DNA from: Octopus vulgaris
Taxonomy: Eukaryota
DNA: 64,000 bases
Direction of reading: 5' to 3'
NCBI GenBank assembly: GCA_951406725.2
Contig: OX597816.1
Coordinates: forward strand, 84,134,001-84,198,000
The notes beneath the pieces are model-generated. The model had not been told where the DNA came from. It worked only from the letters and a program-made list of their open reading frames with translations, and ran no database searches. This document shows positions 153 through 61,917 of the stretch, in pieces. Position numbers and translations under genes: made by a program. Position 1 is the stretch's first letter; each line of letters opens with the position of its first letter.

Positions 153-1410
153 GACATGCCGGAAGTAAATAGACACCTTTAATTTTCAAAATTTCTGATC
201 TAAGCGTCTTAGAAGCGTTTTCAGAATTTACAATGTAATTATTCTGTTTGATTCCAGGTGGCATCATATTAAACATTTGCGAAGAGTAACCATGCCACGC
301 ACAAAAATTTCAGCAGAACTGTCAGATTTTCAAAGAGATCCTATTATTGGGCAATCTGAGGCTGGTCTTAGCCAGCGAAAAAATGCCGAAAATCTTCAAA
401 TTCCTCTTTCTACTGTTAATAGAATTATAGTGCTATTCAAAAGCCAAGGAAAAGAATCAAGAGATTCTCGTCCCGGCCGACCTGGGCCCACGGAAAGGAA
501 GCTTCGCTTTTTTAAAAGGATTGTGGAAAATGAACCCCGTTCAGAAGCTTCTGGCATTGCAAAACAGCTAGAAGTTAGTCCAAGAAGGTGTGTTATATAT
601 CTGCATAAGCTTGGGTATTATGGACGAGCAGCTAGAAGAAAATCTCTCTTACAACCAATTAATATCATGAAAAGAAAGAAATGGACTAAGATGTCAGTAA
701 AATCCAGTTCATTTTGGGATAGAGTGATTTTCTCAGATGAATCCAGATTTGCATTATTTTCAGACAGTGGACGTGTTTCGGTCTGGAGGCATCCTAATCG
801 AGAATTTGATTTGAAACGATTCCAATCAACTGTGAAACATGGCGGTATCTCTGTAATAGTATGGAGAGCTGTCCCCAACAATGGTCATTCTGAGCTGATC
901 GAATGTGTTGTAACCATAAACTCTGAAAAATATATCGAAATACTTAAGAAAGGACTACTTCCGATGTATTCACACGATAACAAAGAAATATGAGTTTTTA
1001 TTCATGGAAGATGGAACTCCATGCCACACAGCAAAAAGGAATCAACAATGGCTGATTGAAAATGGGATCAAAAAGCTTCCTTGGCCGAGCCAATCTCCTG
1101 ACATGAACCCAATTGAAAATCTTTGGCGCATACTAGACAGAGCTATACGAAAAACTCAACAGTATCTTAAATCTAAAGATGAATTGTTTCGATCGTTGCG
1201 AGAAAATTGGGCAGAAATTCCACAAGAGACAATCACAAAGTTCATCAGTTCAATGCCACAAAGAGTTTCTAAATTAATAACTGCAAAGGGAATGTCAACT
1301 AAATACAAAGTATGTAGTCCAACCTATCGATTACATTTCAATTGTTCGCTTTGCGTATTAAAAAAATGATTTTGAAAATTAAAGGTGCCTATTTAATTCC
1401 TGCATGTCTG
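151..1410 (+). mobile_element. Tc1-family DNA transposon (DD34E), full length, transposase disrupted
   Basis: About 42-bp TIRs: cagacatgccggaagtaaatagacacctttaattttcaaaat (151-192) and attttgaaaattaaaggtgcctatttaattcctgcatgtctg (1369-1410). TA on the left flank, TG on the right. Encloses the transposase ORFs. Confidence 0.95.
292..1310 (+). pseudogene. Tc1 transposase split into two ORFs by a stop/frameshift near 990-1003
   Basis: N-terminal HTH with GRP motif, VIFSDESRF (D1), MEDGTPCH (D2), WPSQSPDMNPIENLW (E). 34 residues lie between D2 and E. Ends with GMSTKY. Confidence 0.93.
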
Positions 1411-12241: not shown

Positions 12242-13713
12242 CTAGCATTAAAGACCCGTCGTTGCCGGGTCATAGTGCTAGTGCATGTATATATGTGTAT
12301 ATATATGTGTACATATTACATGTACATCTATATATGTTAGTTAGTTAGTTAGTTAGTTAGTTAATTTGGCTCAAAAGCAAATAGCAAGGCCATGTAGGGG
12401 GACATGGAGTTAAGTACAGGGTGGTGTTCATGTAAAGAGTTCAGGCCACTTGAGGTCAAGGGAGGCTTTGAACAAAGCGGTCGTCGGCATCTTCACCATC
12501 TCGTCTGGCAGCTTGTTCCACGGATCCGCAACCCGGACGGAGAAAGCTCCTCTCCTTCGATTGAGATAAAATCGTCTCAGGTAGAGCTTTTCGGAATGAC
12601 CCCGCAGCCGACGCTCTGGAGCAGGAGTGAAGAACAGCTCTTTCGAGAGGTTACACTTTCCGCTTATGATGTTGTGGGCGAGAATGAGATCACCACGGCG
12701 GCGGTGGTGTATATATACATCTACACATAAAATACAAAATACAAAGTTATATCTTGATACCGCTAGTGATAACAATACACAAAATATATAACAGACCGGA
12801 ATTGTTAGCCCGTCTCTTGTAATTTCGATCAATTGTATCTTGTCCTCCCTCTTGTATAGAAGTGTGTCTACAATCCAGCCTACATCTACTTCTTAATTAA
12901 AATTTTTTCCGGGACGTCCTACGGCCCAGATATAAAGGTAAAAATAAAATATTTCCACTTTGCAATTTCGAATCGAGTACTCCCTTGCACGCTCCGTTGA
13001 CTCGAACCTTGCTTCTATTGTGGCGAATTTACCGCCTCTGATTAGATACCTTTCATACTTGCACCAAGACACTTTTCGAAGGTGCTTTCCTTTATGTGTA
13101 CAAATCTTTTTTCTCTACATTGTATACTTTATTGACAATAGTCTTTTCTTTAATTTAATTTTTTATTATCCATCTGGACTATTCCATTTCTGCACGCTAA
13201 TTTTATTTTTAATTTATTCCCATTCATGTGAAACCACTTATTCAAGTTCAAATCATTGATGCAATTTTATACCAATTGCTATTTTTACTTTTGATTTTAA
13301 TTATTACTTACTACATATAATTCAATTGTTATTATTATTTTTATTGTTAAAGTGAAAGTATCTGACATAAAATAGAGAGACGTTTTTGTTTCACTTTTAA
13401 CACGTAATACTGAAATAGTGGAGAAGATATGATATTGCTATGGGCTTGCTCTAGGCAAGAAGTTGAAACTACATGGACCCTAAGTAAGGCATATGTAAAA
13501 TTTGAATGGAATTGGTTGTGTAGTTCTCAAGTTTTAGGGAATCGTAGCGGAGAAGATATGATATTGCTGTGGGCTCGCCCTAGGCAAAAAGTTCCGGACC
13601 CTAGGTAAGGCATGTGTAAAATTTGAACGAAATTGGTTGTGTAGTTCTCAAGTTTTAGGGAAACAGACAGACAGACAGACAGACACACATTCTCAGTTTT
13701 ATATATATAAAGA
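12242..13713 (-). mobile_element. Non-autonomous Helitron carrying a CR1-like fragment
   Basis: Minus-strand 5' end TCtttatatatataaaactgagaatgtgtgtctgtctg at 13713; 3' hairpin gacccg-N7-cgggtc plus CTAG at 12242. Internal ~120-bp tandem duplication at 13418-13662. The 5' module also occurs at 31750-32007 and 33045-33183. Confidence 0.75.
12336..12705 (-). mobile_element. CR1-type LINE 3' end
   Basis: RLRGHSEKL...FSVRVADPWNKLP...FKASLD is the typical CR1 ORF2 C-terminus, followed by a (TAAC)n tail. Confidence 0.85.
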
Positions 13714-13734
13714 TATATACATATATATATATGT

Positions 13735-14415
13735 GTTAAGAAAACGAAGATCATGTCAACAGTAGCCACAACAAGCATCAACATCAAGATCGATAATGAA
13801 GAGATCGAAGTGGTTGATGATTTCATCTTCCTTGGCTCCAAAATAAATAGAGATGGTGACTGCACTCCAGAAATAAGACGGCGGATAGTACTAGGCAGAG
13901 AGGCAATGGTCAGCATGAGCAGGGTCTGGAAGAGTAGAGACATCAGACTCGCTACCAAATGCAGATTGCTGAATGCAATTGACTTCCCAATAGCAACATA
14001 TGGATGCGAGACCTGTATACTAAAGAAAGCTGACCAGAAGAGAATTAATGCATTCGAGCTTTGGTGTTCGAGAAGACTTTTACGGATTCCATGGCCAGCG
14101 AGGCTCACCAATGGAGAAGTTCTTAACCAGATCAGACCGAAAATGTCGCTGGAGGCTAGGATCACCAAGCATAGATTGGCATATTTCGGTCATATTATGC
14201 GGAGAAAATCCCTGGAGAAGGACATCCTGCTCGGAATTGTCAGTGGCAAGAGAGGGAGAGGCCGACCAAGAACCCGCTGGCTTGATACCATCAAGAGTGA
14301 TACCAGAATGGACATAGCCAATCTGAAAGAATCGGCCCAGGATAGAACTAACTGGAGGACACTGATCCAACGAGTAACCGAGAGTCGACTTCGACTGAGC
14401 GGATAGATAGATAGA
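13735..14415 (+). mobile_element. RTE-clade LINE, 5'-truncated (RT thumb/C-terminus)
   Basis: ORF 13753-14406: IEVVDDFIFLGS, EIRRRI, FELWCSRRLLRIPW, GKRGRGRPRTRWLD; (GATA)n tail. Confidence 0.92.
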
Positions 14416-17165: not shown

Positions 17166-17169
<4 letters not shown>

Positions 17170-19399
17170 ATATGCTCAATCACCTACCGAATACTATAAA
17201 CAAAAACACCATACTGGTATCCTTCGATGTAGTCAACCTCTACTCCAATATCCCCCACAACCTAGGACTAGAGGCAATTCAATTTTGGCTAGAGAATCAC
17301 GCCAACGAACTCCCACATCGCATCAAAAAGGAATTCGTGATAGAAGGGGTTAAATTCATCCTGGAAAATAACTTCTTCGCCTTCAAAGACAACTTCTACC
17401 GACAAAAATCGGGCACTGCGATGGGTACACGAATGGACCCCTCCTTTGCCAACCTAGTCATAAGATATCTTGAAATCAGTCTGTATCGTAAGGTTCTAGA
17501 AAGATATGGTAGCCCTTTCTCCATCTACATAGAAAACAACTGGAAGAGATATCTAAATGACTGTTTCATTCTTTGGCGTGAAAATATAGAGAAACTCAAA
17601 GAATTCCAAGAAATTTTAAATGGACTGGACGTAAACATCCAATTCACGATGGAATATAGCCAGCAACAACTTCCCCTCCTCGATATCCTCATTAAGAAAG
17701 CTAATAATGTAATAGAAACAGACATATATTATAAGCCTACAGATTCTAAGCAATATCTTCCATTCAATTCATGCCACTCCAGACACACCAAGATGAATAT
17801 CCCCTTCAATCTAGCAAAAAGGATATGCACTATAGTTTATAATGCAAACACCAGAGACACACGACTACAAGAACTAAAAGATACCCTTATCACCAGGAAC
17901 TACCCACCTTCACTTATTGACATATGCATTCAACGTGCCCTTCAACTTAACATCCAGGAACTGAGACATCCCAAATCAAAGAAAAACTTACGACCAAAAG
18001 CCTTACCATACATCTCCACACACAACCCTCTCAACAATTAAGCCTTCGGCACCATCCTCCAAAACATACCCCTCCTAAAAAAAGACCACAGAATGAACAC
18101 AATCCTCCAAACACACACGATCATAAAAAGCAAGAGACAGCCTAAATCTATGAAAAGTCTCCTAACACAAGCCCGAATACACTCTTCAACACAGAAGCCG
18201 ACAGTAAAAAAATGTGAAAGACCCAATTGCGGGATATGCGATTATCTAATTGAGGGATCAGAGTTCTCCTTCAAACAGGGACAACGGTTTACAGTGAAAA
18301 GCAACTTCACATGCGCTTCGGAGAACCTGATATACACACTAACCTGCTCTGGGTGTCAAGAGCAGTACATAGGCCAAACAAAAAATTCCCCAAAACAGAA
18401 AAATAGCTTTCAGCCAACACATAGATACTTGCGCCAACAACAAAACACCAGGCTTCAGGATTTTCCCCCTCTACCAATTTAGGGACGATACAACCTCGAG
18501 ACAACGAATAAGTAAAGAAACCCTCTTTATTACAAAATACAGGCGACTTCTTAACGGGTCTACGACAAACGATTAATGCACCTCAGCTTTAGAACAACAG
18601 AAATACACAAGCAAATATTACATTCCAAAGAATCCATTACAAATCAGCCCCAATCACAGCTATAATCCATATCGGGCCAACTTCAAGTCATACAACACCT
18701 CACTACTTCCACTCATTCATATTCTCCCTTCTCTTCTTCTTCTTCTCCTCTTCTTCTTCTTCTTCTTCTTCTTCTTCTTCTTCTTCTTCTTCTTCTTCTT
18801 CTTCTTCTTCTTCTTCTTCTTCTTCTTCTTCATCATCATCATCATTATCATCATCATCGTCATCATCATCATCATCACCATCTTCATCATCTTCTTCTCC
18901 TTCTCATTTCCCTTCTTCTTCTTCTTCTTCTTCTTCTTCTTCTTCTTCTTCTTCTTCTTCTGCTCCACCTTCTACTTCTTAACTTTATCACTAATGCTTT
19001 TTAGTATAACACCATAAACAAACCTTTCAATAGAAATATTCTTCTGAATTGAACTGCAACTGCTAGCCGTCACTGACCATTCAAAATACGACCTTCAAGG
19101 CACTCCCAAATTTTTCCACCCCTTCTCCTCATCAACCTTCTTCTTCTTCTACCCTACCAAGAATTCACAATGACCTCGAACACACAAGTGCAAACAAGAG
19201 AGACAGAGAAAGGCAGAAAGAAGGAAAATGCCACTTATATTTGAACACTATGCAAATATTCCTTTAAAAAAACTTTTCTTTTAATTTTTCTAAATTTAAT
19301 TATTTAATCGTTACAGTTGAAAAGGTCTCAAAATGACCGAAACCGGTACTGAAATGTTCTTTATAAAATTATTTGAGCATTTTCTATCTTGACTTATTT

Positions 19400-19410
<11 letters not shown>
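17166..19410 (+). mobile_element. Penelope-like element, 5'-truncated (RT + GIY-YIG + pLTR), inserted in (TA)n
   Basis: RT motifs VSFDVVNLYSNIP, GTAMGT, RYLND (YLDD-like), TDIYYKPTD. After a frameshift, CERPNCGIC and IYTLTC..YIGQT. HHR in the 3' non-coding part. (TA)n on both sides. Confidence 0.93.
19312..19354 (+). ncRNA. Minimal type I hammerhead ribozyme, U3-A8 core variant
   Basis: cag UUGAAAA ggtc-N7-gacc GAAA ccg GUA ctg; palindromic stem III accggt. Confidence 0.7.
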
Positions 19411-20962: not shown

Positions 20963-21253
20963 ACAGTTCTATACTTAAGAGATGAGGAATTATGTACATT
21001 ATTTACATTATTTACATTTGACGGATATTTGTCCTCATCATGTTTGTTGTTAACACAACGTTTCGGCTGATATACCCTCCAGCCTTCATCAGGTGTCTTG
21101 CGAAAATTTCGAACCTGAGTTCTCATTCCTAACGTATTTTTCGATGTTATTATTATTTTGTTGTTGCTGTTGTTGTTATTATTATTCAGGTCACTGCCTG
21201 GAATCGAACTCGGAGTCTTGGGGTTAGTAGCCCGCGCTCTTAACCACTATGCC
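20963..21253 (-). mobile_element. tRNA-headed SINE (family D) with hammerhead-containing tail
   Basis: Minus strand: gcatagtggttaagagcgcgggctactaacccc...gagttcgattcc head, (AAT/AAC)n, then acac CUGAUGA a ggctg-N10-cagcc GAAA cguu gugu. A second copy lies at 60086-60895. Confidence 0.85.
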
Positions 21254-30377: not shown

Positions 30378-31677
30378 ACATTTTGATGACATTTTGAGAG
30401 CCTTGGGAGAGGGTTCCAACACTGATGTCATCTACCTTGATTTCAACAAGGCCTTTGACAGGGTTGATCATAAGATCCTTCTGAAAAAGCTGTCCAATAT
30501 TGGTGTCAGTGGAAAGCTGCTGCAGTGGATCAAGTGCTTCCTGTCTAACAGAACCCAACATGTTGTAGTCGAAGGAGTCAAATCCAGCCCAGCCAAAGTC
30601 AGCAGTGGTGTCCCACAAGGCACTGTGTTGGGCCCACTCCTCTTCATCATCTACATAAATGATATTACTGACACCATCAAACACAGTAACATCAGAACCT
30701 TCGCTGATGATTCCAAGCTCCAGAAGGTCATCAATGGCGTGGATGACCGAATAAGCCTTCAGTCAGACCTACTGGCTGTTGTCCAATGGGCGGAAAAGAA
30801 TAACATGCTAAACGAAGACAAATTCGAACTGATCCACTTTGGAAGGGAGGACGCTCTGAAACTCCCATACTCCCTTCCTTCTGGAGAAATTCTCATGGCG
30901 TCCAACAACATCAGAGACTTGGGAGTAACAGTGGGCAACAACATAAGCTGGGCTACACATATAATCAGCAAAGTTGACATGGCCCGCAGAATGTGTTCCT
31001 GGATTCTCAGAACCTTCCAGTCGAGAGATTCCCACGCTATTATCCTTCTCTTCTCCACTTTTGCCCGACCCCACCTTGAATACTGCTGTCCACTGTGGTC
31101 TCCCTACACAAAACAAAATATTATGAGAATTGAAGCTCCCCAAAGGTCAATCACAAAAAAGATAGATGGCATGTCAGACCTTGACTACTGGGGTAGACTA
31201 GAGAAGCTGAAACTGTATTCACTCCAACGACGCCGTGAACGCTACATTATCTGTATGATGTGGAAAATATTCCATCAGCACTGTCCGAATGATGTTGGCA
31301 TCACCTTCAAAATACATCTAAGGCTTGAACCACGTGCCATCCGTCCACAACAAAAATCTAAATCGCATCACATAACGACAATACGGCACAACTATTTCAC
31401 CTCAATTGGACCCGCTCTCTTCAACATTACACCAGGACACATCAAAAAAGAAACTGACCACACAAAATTCAAGAAGTCTTTGGACAAATTCCTTCAAACA
31501 GTCCCGGACAAACCACCCACACCTGGATATGTCTCCGCAAACAATAACTCTCTGCTCGAATGGGCCTTGGTGCCCAAATCCTGAATTGAAAGACTTCGCC
31601 AGGTGGTGCTATTAAGTTAGACATGGCCTGGGCCAATACTGGCCAAAACCTTTCTAAGTTATTCTAAGTTATTAAGT

Positions 31678-35403: not shown

Positions 35404-35933
35404 TTATAATGTGAAACATAATTCATATCATTGGGTCACTTGAATTCTCTACGTTCATTTGAAATTCCAATTATGCAAATTAATACTGGCCAAAAATCTT
35501 CGTATCTCTCTCTTTTTCGTATAAACATTCTTTCACTGATCAAAGCAGGCTTTGTTAAACTATGCTAAGCTGATGATGGTTCAGTAAGACTGAAATATGC
35601 CTGTAGATATTCACTTGTCTGTGAACAAAGACACTTTTTCAAGCATGTAAATTCATATACTGAAACGAATATTTCGTCTAATTTTATTTTCAGTTATTTA
35701 CAATGTTCTACGAGATTTACTATAAAGTCCTTTTCTCCAAAGTAGAGGGACATTATAACTGAAGGAGATTAACTGAGATGCCATCAACATTCTTTAGTAT
35801 AGTTGTCTAAATACTTGTAATTAGCATTTGATAAAGTTCCGTGAGTATTAATATTCAAGAATAATTTAAATGAATAAAGAGAATAATACATCAACACTAT
35901 TTAATTATTACAGCATGCTTAATTTAAATATTT

Positions 35934-37907: not shown

Positions 37908-37911
<4 letters not shown>

Positions 37912-39141
37912 CTCTTGACAAATGCCAAACTTCACACACCACATCCACCCCCAACAGTAAAAAAATGTGCACGCTCAAACTGTGGTACCTGCCCCTTTCT
38001 ACTTGAAGGCTCTGAATTTACCTTCAAACAAGGTACGAAGTTTAAAATCAAGACTAACTTCTCCTGTTCCTCCGAGAACCTTATCTACGTTCTCACATGC
38101 GCTGGTTGCCAACATAATTATGTTGGACAAACGAGTCTCCCGTTACGTAAACGAGTAACGGTGCATAAAGAACAAATAAATCTCCCGGAATACCGACAAA
38201 TTCCACTGAGTGACCACTTAGACTCATGTGCTAAAGACTTAAACCCCAAATTCTATATATTCCCCTTCTACCAATGTAAAGACGGGATCACCACACAGGA
38301 GAGAATTAACAAGGAGAATCTCTTTATTGAAAAATTCCAAACACAACTTAATATGCAAACTCCTCGTTGATCAAACTTCCTTTCTCTACCTCACTTTTCA
38401 TGGATGGACTAACACAAATATATAAAGATACCATGCATTCATCACTTCAAGCTAAAACTTATATTCTTTAAATATCATTTTTACTATTGTTGTTATTACT
38501 ATCATTTTTATTATAAATGATATGACAATTTGAAATGCAATTGTCTATGCAGATTTATATTATTAGAAAATAATGTAAATAAAGTGTTAAAATCTGAAAG
38601 TTAAGTTAACAAGCAATTATATAAAAAAGATAATGCAAATGAAGCTAAAATGATAGTTTTATAATTTGGGTTTTATTGAAGAACTTAAAAGAGTTGTCTC
38701 CCCTTACTCACAACACAGGAACTGAAGAACCAGGACCACAATTACTACTACTTCCTGTCCTGCAAACATGCTGAATTTAACAACACAACACAACACATGC
38801 TCTTAATCCCTTTGGATCTTAACACCTCAAGGTAATTTTTTCGTAAACAACCATAAAACGCAAGATACACAACGAACTCACAATGTATCGGAGAACTTAT
38901 TTTTTAATTTTTGTACATTTTTATCACTATTCTTTTACAAAAAACAATGCAATTTTCTTTTTTTCCCCTTTCTAATTTTTAAAAAACTTCTTAAAACATA
39001 AATATTCTTGACAAGTCATACAATGACGAAAACCGGTTGAATAAATATACATTTATATATTTTATCATTTTCTCATTTTATTAAAATTTTCTTTCATTTG
39101 AGCATTCTGCATTTAAAAAAAAAAAAAAATTTTTCCTTACT

Positions 39142-39145
<4 letters not shown>
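37908..39145 (+). mobile_element. Penelope-like element 3' portion (GIY-YIG endonuclease + pLTR)
   Basis: ORF 37915-38370: CARSNCGTC, IYVLTC..YVGQT, RVTVH, KENLFI..LN. Related to but diverged from 18093-18560. Confidence 0.9.
39003..39043 (+). ncRNA. Minimal type I hammerhead ribozyme, U3-A8 core variant
   Basis: tattc UUGACAA gtca-N5-tgac GAAA accggt t gaata. Confidence 0.7.
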
Positions 39146-54189: not shown

Positions 54190-54545
54190 AACAATAGCAT
54201 CGTCCTCTATTGGACCATCGCATTTAGTTGTTACTACTGTTTAGTTCTCGCTCAGAGATTGCTTCTCCTTTTTCAAGATCAGCTTATTAGTATTTTGCGT
54301 TTGGAATGAGTTCTCATCGCTAGCTTGTAATTATCACACACTGATGACGAGTTACTACTAAGAAACCCGGGTCTATGTGTATCACGTATGGCTAGATATG
54401 GGAACAATGATTTCCCTTCGCAAATACTAATCAGACACAGACAATGTGTCATCAGCCAGCTTGAGGAGATGCCCTCCTGGGGCTATAAATAGTAGCATCA
54501 TCCTCTGTGGACACGCTACCTTTAGTTGGCAAATAAGCTTCACAA
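54190..54545 (+). mobile_element. Retrozyme-like non-coding unit (298-nt period) with HHR
   Basis: Terminal direct repeat at 54195 and 54493; cacaca CUGAUGA ... GAAA cccgg GUC tatgtg at 54335-54380; long-range pairing; (TA)n flanks. Confidence 0.75.
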
Positions 54546-60085: not shown

Positions 60086-60895
60086 GTTGTTCTATATTTA
60101 AGAGATGAGGAATTATGTACGTTCTTTACATTATTTACATTTGACAGATATTTGTTCTCATCTTGTTTGGTGTAGTGGTTAAGAGCGCGGGCTGCTAACC
60201 CCAAGATTCCAAGTTCGATTCCAGGCAGTGACTTGAATAATAATAATAATAATGGTATAAAAGATCGGCTACAGCAAATATTCTGCTCAATTCCACACAT
60301 TTGCTTTTCAGTTGTTTGACTTTAACCAGTTGAATATGTCCCTTGGTGTCTGACAATATGTGCATCTCTGATCATGAGCAGAAGTAGTGGGGGAGCATCA
60401 TAGCCATGTGTTGAGAGGGATTATTGGGGGTTTCAATAATTCACCTCTGGAAACATAGGTGTTTCGTTCAACATCCTCTAACAACCCTTACTCAGGGACC
60501 TTTTGAGCGGATGGGTTACTCGACCAGAAGAAAATTCTAACTGGGTCCCACCTGCAAGGTCATGTGCTGTTTATCTTGATATGAGATCACCATGTCGCGC
60601 ACATATGGTTGTGATACATGTGCCTGGTGTACCCTTATCAGACGGGTAGTCATGATGAGTATGCTGGGCTTCGTATATTTTACCCCAGTATCACTTTGAT
60701 GGCATGCACTGTTCTCTCACTCAACAACAACAACAACAATAATAATAATAACATCGAAAAATACCTTAGGAATGAGAACCCATGTTCGAAATTTCTCCAA
60801 GATACCTGATGAAGGCTGGAGGTTATATCAGCCGAAACGTTGTGATAACAACAAGCAAGATGAGGACCAATATCCGTTAAATGTAAATAATGTTA
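60086..60895 (+). mobile_element. Family D HHR-SINE with inverted tail copy and a nested insert, inside a family A SINE
   Basis: Inverted tail 60089-60169, tRNA head 60170-60235, insert 60253-60722 in (AAT)n, HHR 60802-60845; flanking duplication aaaac(c)ggaataaat. Confidence 0.82.
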
Positions 60896-61917
60896 AAAAC
60901 GGAATAAATACTGCTAAGCATTTTATCCAACGTACAAACGTTTCTACAAGCTACCCACCTTTTGAGTAACAATGAGGGAAAATGCTTGCTTTACTAATCA
61001 TAAAAAAGCTTCAAACAACCAAGGTAACTGCATGAAAAATTTAGTTTCCTTTCTTTTCCGTGTATTTTCATCTTCATTGATTTCTTCATTTTAATATACC
61101 TTACAATGATTGTAGAAGCATTATATATTGGAATATGTCATCTCATAAAAGCACTTGATAGAGAAAATTTATAGCTGAAAAACAAACAAGCGAAAAAAAA
61201 AAGAAAACGTAAACTATAGTAACTTGAGTATGTTTTTTTCTATGGATGAAAGTGAGAATACACGCGTGTATGTATGTGTGTATGTATGTATGTATGTATT
61301 ATGTGTGTGTATATGTATGTATGTCTGTAAACATGTATGCATGTACGTATGTATGTATGCATGTACTTATGTATGTATGTTTGAATGCATGGATGAGTGA
61401 TGCATTTGTGTGCCTACAGCTGGGATATCCAGTATTAATAAATTTGCGCCTAAGTATGTTATATCGCTGGATATTAATAATTGTCTATCTATCTATCTAT
61501 CTTTCTATCTATCTATCTATCTCTGTATAATACACGCACACACACATGTATATACTTACCACATGTCTAACTGCAGCGGAGCAATTTAGCTAGCTTGCCA
61601 GCTATTTACGTAAAAGATTAAGCATTATTATCTATATGCGTGAATGTGTATCTCAGTCTTTGTGTTTTTATTCATGTGTAAAAAAAAAATGATTGACAGT
61701 CATTGTTATTGGGTATAAGGTTTGGCATGTATATTAAACGAAAAACAAGCTGAGACAACCTTTTTAATAACGTTACGAATGTGCGTATAAAACAGGAATT
61801 TTGTGTCTCAATGCATATTATTCTTACGCGAGTGTGTGGTTGTATATATATATATATATTATATATATATATACACACACACATACTCACACACTCATGC
61901 ACACTCACAAACGCACG

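Follow-up and report, generated by a model that had tools for sequence, protein, structure and literature searches.

Two decayed Penelope-like elements (PLEs) in a 64,000-nt stretch of Octopus vulgaris DNA (contig OX597816.1, positions 84,134,001 to 84,198,000; hereafter the window) each carry a type I hammerhead motif at their 3' end, in which the pair between core positions 3 and 8 is U3-A8 instead of C3-G8. Judging from the sequence, we consider it probable that these 5'-truncated PLE copies inherited the motif from one ancestral element, in which the ribozyme stayed functional with the swapped pair. The U3-A8 core itself is already published, in PLE hammerheads in 2014 (PMC4209133) and in nature in 2011 (PMC3088659), so that the novelty implied by the original prediction falls away and the window pair is a further example. 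The elements and their motifs are as follows.

17166..19404, plus strand: PLE copy 1, 5'-truncated and decayed, with a C-terminal endonuclease, lying between two (TA)n microsatellites
17166..18555, plus strand: reverse transcriptase (RT; C-terminal part), thumb, CX2-5CxxC linker and GIY-YIG endonuclease of copy 1
19309..19356, plus strand: hammerhead motif 1, type I, with helix I formed by 19309-19316/19349-19356 and containing one A-A mismatch
19317-19323, plus strand: core UUGAAAA of motif 1 (U3 = 19317, A8 = 19322)
19324-19338: helix II of motif 1, ggtc-tcaaaat-gacc, followed by GAA at 19339-19341
19342-19347: palindrome ACCGGU of motif 1, followed by A17 at 19348; the inner part of helix I is cag 19314-19316 / ctg 19349-19351
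37909..39144, plus strand: PLE copy 2, more strongly 5'-truncated, with endonuclease and 3' UTR/pLTR only, flanked by two (TA)n microsatellites
37909..38370, plus strand: open frame of copy 2 with CX2-5CxxC linker and GIY-YIG endonuclease
39003..39043, plus strand: hammerhead motif 2, type I, with helix I formed by tattc 39003-39007 / gaata 39039-39043
39008-39014, plus strand: core UUGACAA of motif 2 (U3 = 39008, A8 = 39013)
39015-39027: helix II of motif 2, gtca-tacaa-tgac, followed by GAAA at 39028-39031
39032-39037: palindrome ACCGGU of motif 2, followed by U17 at 39038

Written as RNA, motif 1 reads cag-UUGAAAA-gguc(ucaaaau)gacc-GAA-ACCGGU-A-cug and motif 2 reads uauuc-UUGACAA-guca(uacaa)ugac-GAAA-ACCGGU-U-gaaua. 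All strings quoted in the original prediction (UUGAAAA, UUGACAA at 39008, the stems and accggt in both motifs) are present in the sequence. Its statement that U3-A8 preserves the 3:8 Watson-Crick pair is borne out in both motifs, which share an N3-UGA-N-N8-A core. Helix I consists of 3 bp, a mismatch and 4 bp in motif 1 and of 5 bp in motif 2, while helix II has 4 bp (motif 1) or 4-5 bp (motif 2) and starts with a G-C pair (G10.1-C11.1) in both. Dimer folds of both motifs form an intermolecular ACCGGU duplex. In sequence, GAA-ACCGGU-A of motif 1 fits the order G12-A13-A14, A15.1-U16.1, unpaired H17, although its A17 is predicted to pair with U3; the predicted cut lies 3' of 19348. Motif 2 has one A beyond the consensus between G12 and helix III, or N17 is absent; it may be read either with an extra A in GAAA or as an 8-nt palindrome without N17. 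An alternative register of motif 2 (G17, bulged C) was also considered; it forms four helix I pairs versus five.

A structure descriptor that leaves positions 3 and 8 free and allows the extra A of motif 2 was run on both window strands. It returned three matches: U3-A8 at 19317 and at 39008, and C3-G8 at 21092 on the minus strand. Block-wise dinucleotide shuffling, repeated 300 times, produced on average 0.05 matches per window (0.007 with U3-A8), and at least two matches occurred in 1 of 300 shuffles; these odds are somewhat generous because the descriptor was written after the sites had been seen. The best Rfam match of motif 1, in a 176-nt search, was Hammerhead_HH9 (RF02275; 20.9 bits versus a cut-off of 52, E 0.0042). 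Motif 1 thus misses the gathering threshold of this family and motif 2 has no hammerhead match in Rfam, so neither is filed under RF02275. For the whole window, the 150 of 320 Rfam matches listed include no hammerhead and none at gathering score; those listed are microsatellite artefacts (miRNA models). Fold energies are not better than shuffled (z = -0.94 for motif 1 and -0.12 for motif 2), the expected outcome for a junction of three helices of which helix III is so small.

A chance hammerhead likeness in AT-rich DNA would be compatible with these z-scores, with the missing Rfam match of motif 2 and with the 19 occurrences of the bare UUGANAA..GAAA pattern in the window, two of which fold as hammerheads. 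The full descriptor nevertheless gives only 0.007 U3-A8 matches per shuffled window, and both motifs occupy the position and strand of published PLE hammerheads (Table S1 of PMC4209133, as available). This position, together with the motifs in related loci described below, effectively refutes chance, to which we assign almost no weight. Both motifs are confirmed as real, far above chance and co-located with the window's only PLE remnants. The search results also bear on two proposals of the original prediction: a strict CUGANGA search does miss both motifs, as the available text of PMC4209133 says of its own first descriptor, and the proposed bare UUGANAA..GAAA search proves noisy.

The assignment of the hammerheads to the pLTR type of PLEs agrees with their surroundings. 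Each is on the sense strand, at the 3' terminus of its PLE remnant and downstream of the ORF remnant, the window having only these two PLE ORF remnants. They sit about 760 nt (copy 1) and 640 nt (copy 2) past the endonuclease ends, and 57 nt and 107 nt ahead of the 3' (TA)n. The same position is seen in the 5'-truncated PLEs of Table S1. Since both copies are 5'-truncated, only the 3' repeat of the pLTR-ORF-pLTR arrangement is present. In tblastn comparisons with the full-length relative P0001, copy 1 matches residues 278-679 at 63% and 697-752 at 55%, and copy 2 matches residues 606-752 at 59%; P0001 maps to exactly these two places in the window. Neither a profile of 43 relatives nor blastn of both families found a third PLE copy in the window, which holds one copy per family.

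Copy 1 is damaged by an in-frame stop (18039-18041) and a frameshifting deletion near 18380-18388, and its RT motif reads KRYLND, with one catalytic aspartate substituted. Selenocysteine read-through of the stop at 18039, as in some Naiads, was ruled out, the codon being TAA. The RT of copy 1 matches Pfam RVT_1 below the cut-off (E 8e-4), and the endonuclease of copy 2 matches GIY-YIG at E 1.8e-4 (22.2 bits versus a cut-off of 22.6). A long (TTC)n/(ATC)n tract at 18730-18980 in the 3' UTR of copy 1 is absent from copy 2. The linkers read CERPNCGIC in copy 1 and CARSNCGTC in copy 2, and the CxxC inside GIY-YIG reads IYTLTCSGC and IYVLTCAGC, respectively. Among PLEs with a C-terminal endonuclease, the CX2-5CxxC linker has been assigned to Neptune and Nematis (PMC8557442, available text). 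By this linker the copies would be typed as Neptune/Nematis-type EN+ PLEs. Membership in the Naiad/Chlamys group, which has an N-terminal endonuclease and no canonical hammerhead, was ruled out by the C-terminal endonuclease and the presence of a hammerhead. The closest named protein matches of the element come from bivalves or from bacterial assemblies, the latter probably reflecting host contamination.

The two copies belong to distinct families, with 74/132 aligned residues (56%) and 10/25 fourfold sites identical. Alignments of their UTRs with E < 0.01 comprise only the hammerhead region (72 nt, the longest) and a 27-nt U-rich stretch, the E of the latter being the lower. Core letters and ACCGGU are kept across both families, and helix I pairs 1-3 are changed on both sides (G-C/C-G, A-U/U-A and C-G/U-A), with pair 4 broken in motif 1. 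The helix II hairpins are 10/13 identical once the outer G-C pair of motif 1 is removed. The claim that stems I and II differ in sequence yet still pair therefore holds for stem I and its three double-sided pairs but fails for the largely shared stem II. As aligned, the helix II likeness is mostly common descent, and true covariation is confined to the three pairs of helix I.

Decay would offer another origin for the U3-A8 pair: ordinary CUGANGA families could have left two dead copies that each gained a C-to-T and a G-to-A change in an AT-rich genome. Both copies are indeed decayed (stop, frameshift, truncation), both changes are transitions towards A/T, and the changed G of motif 2 would have sat in a CpG (C7-G8). 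However, decay needs four specific transitions at the same two positions in both copies, for which a toy model (60% transitions, 2-15% divergence, independent changes) gives a probability of 2e-8 to 7e-5. Moreover, over ~460 codons copy 1 shows a single stop and a single deletion, and the 153 codons of copy 2 are free of stops, so that divergence from the parent elements was small, and U3-A8 also occurs in a related contig (L005, below) and in two Schistosoma families. Because the copies represent distinct families with near-saturated fourfold sites, independent decay is very unlikely. On the sequences, U3-A8 likely reached the window copies by inheritance within their families and did not arise as they decayed. 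The copies being sister families, one ancestral switch is likely, not two. The original reading of covariation rather than decay is thus upheld as a family trait by the toy model and the relatives, but the two copies probably record a single event.

One scan of genome contigs found related PLE genes on seven contigs (L001-L007), four of them from one assembly. The records are those of GTDB bacterial assemblies, in which the contigs probably represent animal DNA from host contamination. The 3' UTR is long enough in five of the seven, L003 and L004 ending too soon after the gene. The scan recovered the hammerheads of L001, L005 and L007, and those of L002 and L006 were identified by eye. Positions 3:8 are C3-G8 in four of these five (L001, L002, L006, L007) and U3-A8 in L005, with 0 mismatches. 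The L005 hammerhead contains UUGAUAA, the palindrome ACAUGU and U17. L001 has a helix I of two pairs, L002 and L006 have a short, weak helix II with a U-U pair at its base, and L007 spans a complete pLTR-ORF-pLTR element, whose two hammerheads, at 48 and 3545, are identical. If the window pair is entered as one case, permutation gives odds of only 1 in 15 for the 3:8 match among relatives, which is suggestive but not strong by itself.

Phylogenetic placement relied on a first, quick tree of 45 rows and a second, careful tree of 18 rows (LG+G4), which omitted L004 (no 3' UTR) and 26/36 database proteins. Copies 1 and 2 are sisters in both, with SH-aLRT 93 in the quick tree and 89/84 in the 18-row tree; neither value is starred and the sister relation is not firmly supported, copy 2 filling 20% of the alignment columns. 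L005 joins the C3-G8 contig L006 (100/100). A clade of the window pair, L005 and L003, a group named after the first tree was known, is rejected (p-AU 4e-8). With the window pair separate from L005/L003, the swap likely occurred at least two times in this group. The direction of the switch, from C3-G8 to U3-A8, is inferred from C3-G8 being the commoner state. Such a repeated swap in related PLEs, as the tree suggests, would be comparative evidence of selection on the active hammerhead conformation.

In the mechanism we propose, an intact element would be transcribed from tandem pLTRs, and two hammerheads would pair via the self-complementary ACCGGU. The resulting 6-bp helix III would permit a cut 3' of N17, which is probably slow and aided by the element's protein and would trim the transposon RNA. 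Positions 3 and 8 of the hammerhead form a tertiary Watson-Crick pair according to published work, and the 2'-OH of nucleotide 8 is a possible general acid, with G12 as the base (PMC6155905, available text); a base swap can therefore be tolerated.

The lone window copies are probably silent relics, given a one-base indel in the core of copy 2 and the A17-U3 pair of copy 1. This pair, which extends helix I of motif 1, appears in the minimum-energy folds and has a probability of 0.77 in the predicted monomer ensemble. The motif 1 hammerhead dimer lies at -23.5 kcal/mol versus a dimer minimum of -25.7 kcal/mol (2.2 apart). Neither copy is a clean ribozyme, because motif 2 either carries an additional A or lacks N17 and motif 1 is predicted to form the A17-U3 pair; by these models, activity of the two genomic copies is doubtful. 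A natural U13a insertion in GAAA is described as likely tolerated (section 8 of PMC3088659), so the extra A of motif 2 need not be fatal. That insertion is a U, unlike the A of motif 2, and the available text of section 8 makes no tie to PLEs.

U3-A8 could also be a family trait of a weak or non-cleaving fold that is kept for dimerisation, protein binding or RT-initiation positioning, with the 3:8 pair as a structural leftover. Published PLE minimal hammerheads perform poorly in vitro and show low dimer cleavage (PMC4209133, available text). The hammerhead of the Anolis Poseidon PLE (PAc) cleaves only with protein, its mutants had no effect on insertion in vitro, and 0 RNA-seq reads ended at the cut; a biological need for the hammerhead cut is unproven even in this best-studied PLE (Frangieh et al. 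2024, PMC11167929, available text). The A17 of motif 1, predicted to trap U3, would also suit a non-cleaving fold. Such a role accounts poorly, however, for the conservation of G5, A6, A9, G12, A13, A14 and A15.1-U16.1 in both families and relatives, and unless the active conformation is under selection, the maintenance of the 3:8 pair via double changes is difficult to account for. We regard the non-cleaving role as unlikely and favour a swapped pair that kept the ribozyme working.

The predicted U3-A17 pair of motif 1 resembles the C3-G17 trap, by which stabilised hammerheads were slowed 8- to 100-fold; in a G3-C8 variant, G17 is preferred over C17 (PMC3884650, available text). The other U3-A8 examples have U17 (motif 2, L005 and Sm4 of Schistosoma mansoni) or G17 (Sm3), and in the 56 published rows of PMC4209133, as available, G17 occurs once, in a U3-A8 row. 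It is conceivable, if doubtful, that the 3:8 pair of PLEs repeatedly flips between C-G and U-A in separate lineages, and that U3 brings a rule of its own by which A17 self-traps and G17 is allowed. If true, the U3/A17 combination in the family of copy 1 would be a built-in brake, with cleavage waiting for dimerisation or the element's protein. Should the N17 rule depend on position 3, the 3:17 trap model could readily be tested on natural families.

The window is AT-rich and packed with microsatellites, SINE-like repeats and decayed transposons, and the repeat search was swamped by microsatellites. Further hammerhead-like stretches and transposon remnants are listed below.

21251-20960, minus strand: SINE-like repeat, with hammerhead C3 at 21092
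60173-60252 and 60722-60899, plus strand: second, split copy of the SINE-like repeat, with hammerhead C3 at 60806
54332-54380, plus strand: CUGAUGA..GAAA at 54341, palindrome ACCCGGGU, C17, 5/6 helix I pairs and a broken helix II
35561-35610, plus strand: CUGAUGA..GAAA at 35570, with a weak helix II and G17
199-1369, plus strand: Tc1/mariner-type transposase remnant in two frames (HTH_Tnp_Tc3_2, DDE_3)
30382-31584, plus strand: LINE-type RT fragment (RVT_1, E 5e-18)
13711-14406, plus strand: LINE-type RT fragment with no Pfam match, which we take to resemble an RTE-type C-terminus

The SINE-like repeat combines a tRNA-like head (box A/B-like motifs by eye), an (AAT/AAC)n spacer and a C3-G8 minimal hammerhead with CUGAUGA-A, a 6-bp helix II and ACGU. 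ARAGORN reported no tRNA in the window, including this head. An inverted 3' fragment (60089-60173) abuts the 5' end of the second copy, an arrangement typical of PLE insertion. The repeat could therefore be a SINE of tRNA origin that PLEs mobilised, and it is possibly more interesting than the U3-A8 finding. We found no prior paper on such a hammerhead-bearing tRNA-type SINE in open-licence PMC and bioRxiv; the Schistosoma alpha elements are hammerhead-bearing SINE-like precedents (PMC6765202, available text). The stretches at 54332-54380 and 35561-35610, with no PLE gene near either, are decayed ribozymes or chance.

Searches of open-licence PMC and bioRxiv gave PMC4209133 and PMC3088659 as the relevant papers on U3-A8 and listed none that, by title or abstract, deals with an octopus hammerhead ribozyme of this kind. 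These or comparable motifs may already be among those of Lünse et al. (2017). The window pair extends the known carriers of U3-A8 to another animal lineage and to a group of PLEs with the linker (Neptune/Nematis type). Descriptors used in hammerhead surveys should admit YUGANRA together with structure, as the 2014 paper already did (PMC4209133, available text).

Among known systems, several natural ribozymes show covariation from C3-G8 to U3-A8, and the work describing them cites earlier proof that the variant is active in vitro (Perreault et al. 2011, PMC3088659, available text). In PLEs, "U3-A8 instead of C3-G8" was described for Schistosoma Cercyon, and a re-search seeded by that PLE yielded about 1,300 Schistosoma matches (Cervera and de la Pena 2014, PMC4209133, available text). 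The 56 rows of its Fig. S3 comprise 53 C3-G8, 2 U3-A8 and 1 U3-G8, as counted in PDF text with possibly shifted columns. The U3-G8 row is a Saccoglossus PLE hammerhead (1/56 rows), so strict 3:8 pairing is not universal. None of the 56 rows, in this form, is from a cephalopod or combines U3-A8 with a 6-nt palindrome; L005 has both of the latter features.

The closest counterparts of the window motifs in the core are Sm3 and Sm4 of Schistosoma mansoni Cercyon, which likewise have U3-A8, belong to a PLE pLTR and escape the CUGANGA descriptor; the core of Sm4, UUGAAAA, is that of motif 1. In Sm3 and Sm4 an additional nucleotide separates 9 from 10.1 and loop 3 is missing, whereas the window motifs lack that nucleotide, have a 6-nt palindromic helix III and belong to a different host and PLE lineage. 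All three helices of Hammerhead_HH9 (clan CL00010) align with motif 1, which has no full helix III loop. In the Anolis element PAc, C3G or G8C abolishes cleavage and the double mutant partly rescues it (PMC11167929, available text); its core is C3-G8, in contrast to the U3-A8 of the window copies, and the CX2-5CxxC linker that the window copies have is not part of the published description of the Penelope/Poseidon clade (PMC8557442, available text). The hammerheads of Marsupenaeus MjPLE, Adineta Athena, and the Aedes and Drosophila PLEs resemble the window motifs in being type I, with a palindromic helix III and predicted dimer cleavage, and that of the shrimp Marsupenaeus also lacks the 9/10.1 insert; these four carry C3-G8 where the window motifs carry U3-A8 (PMC4209133, available text).
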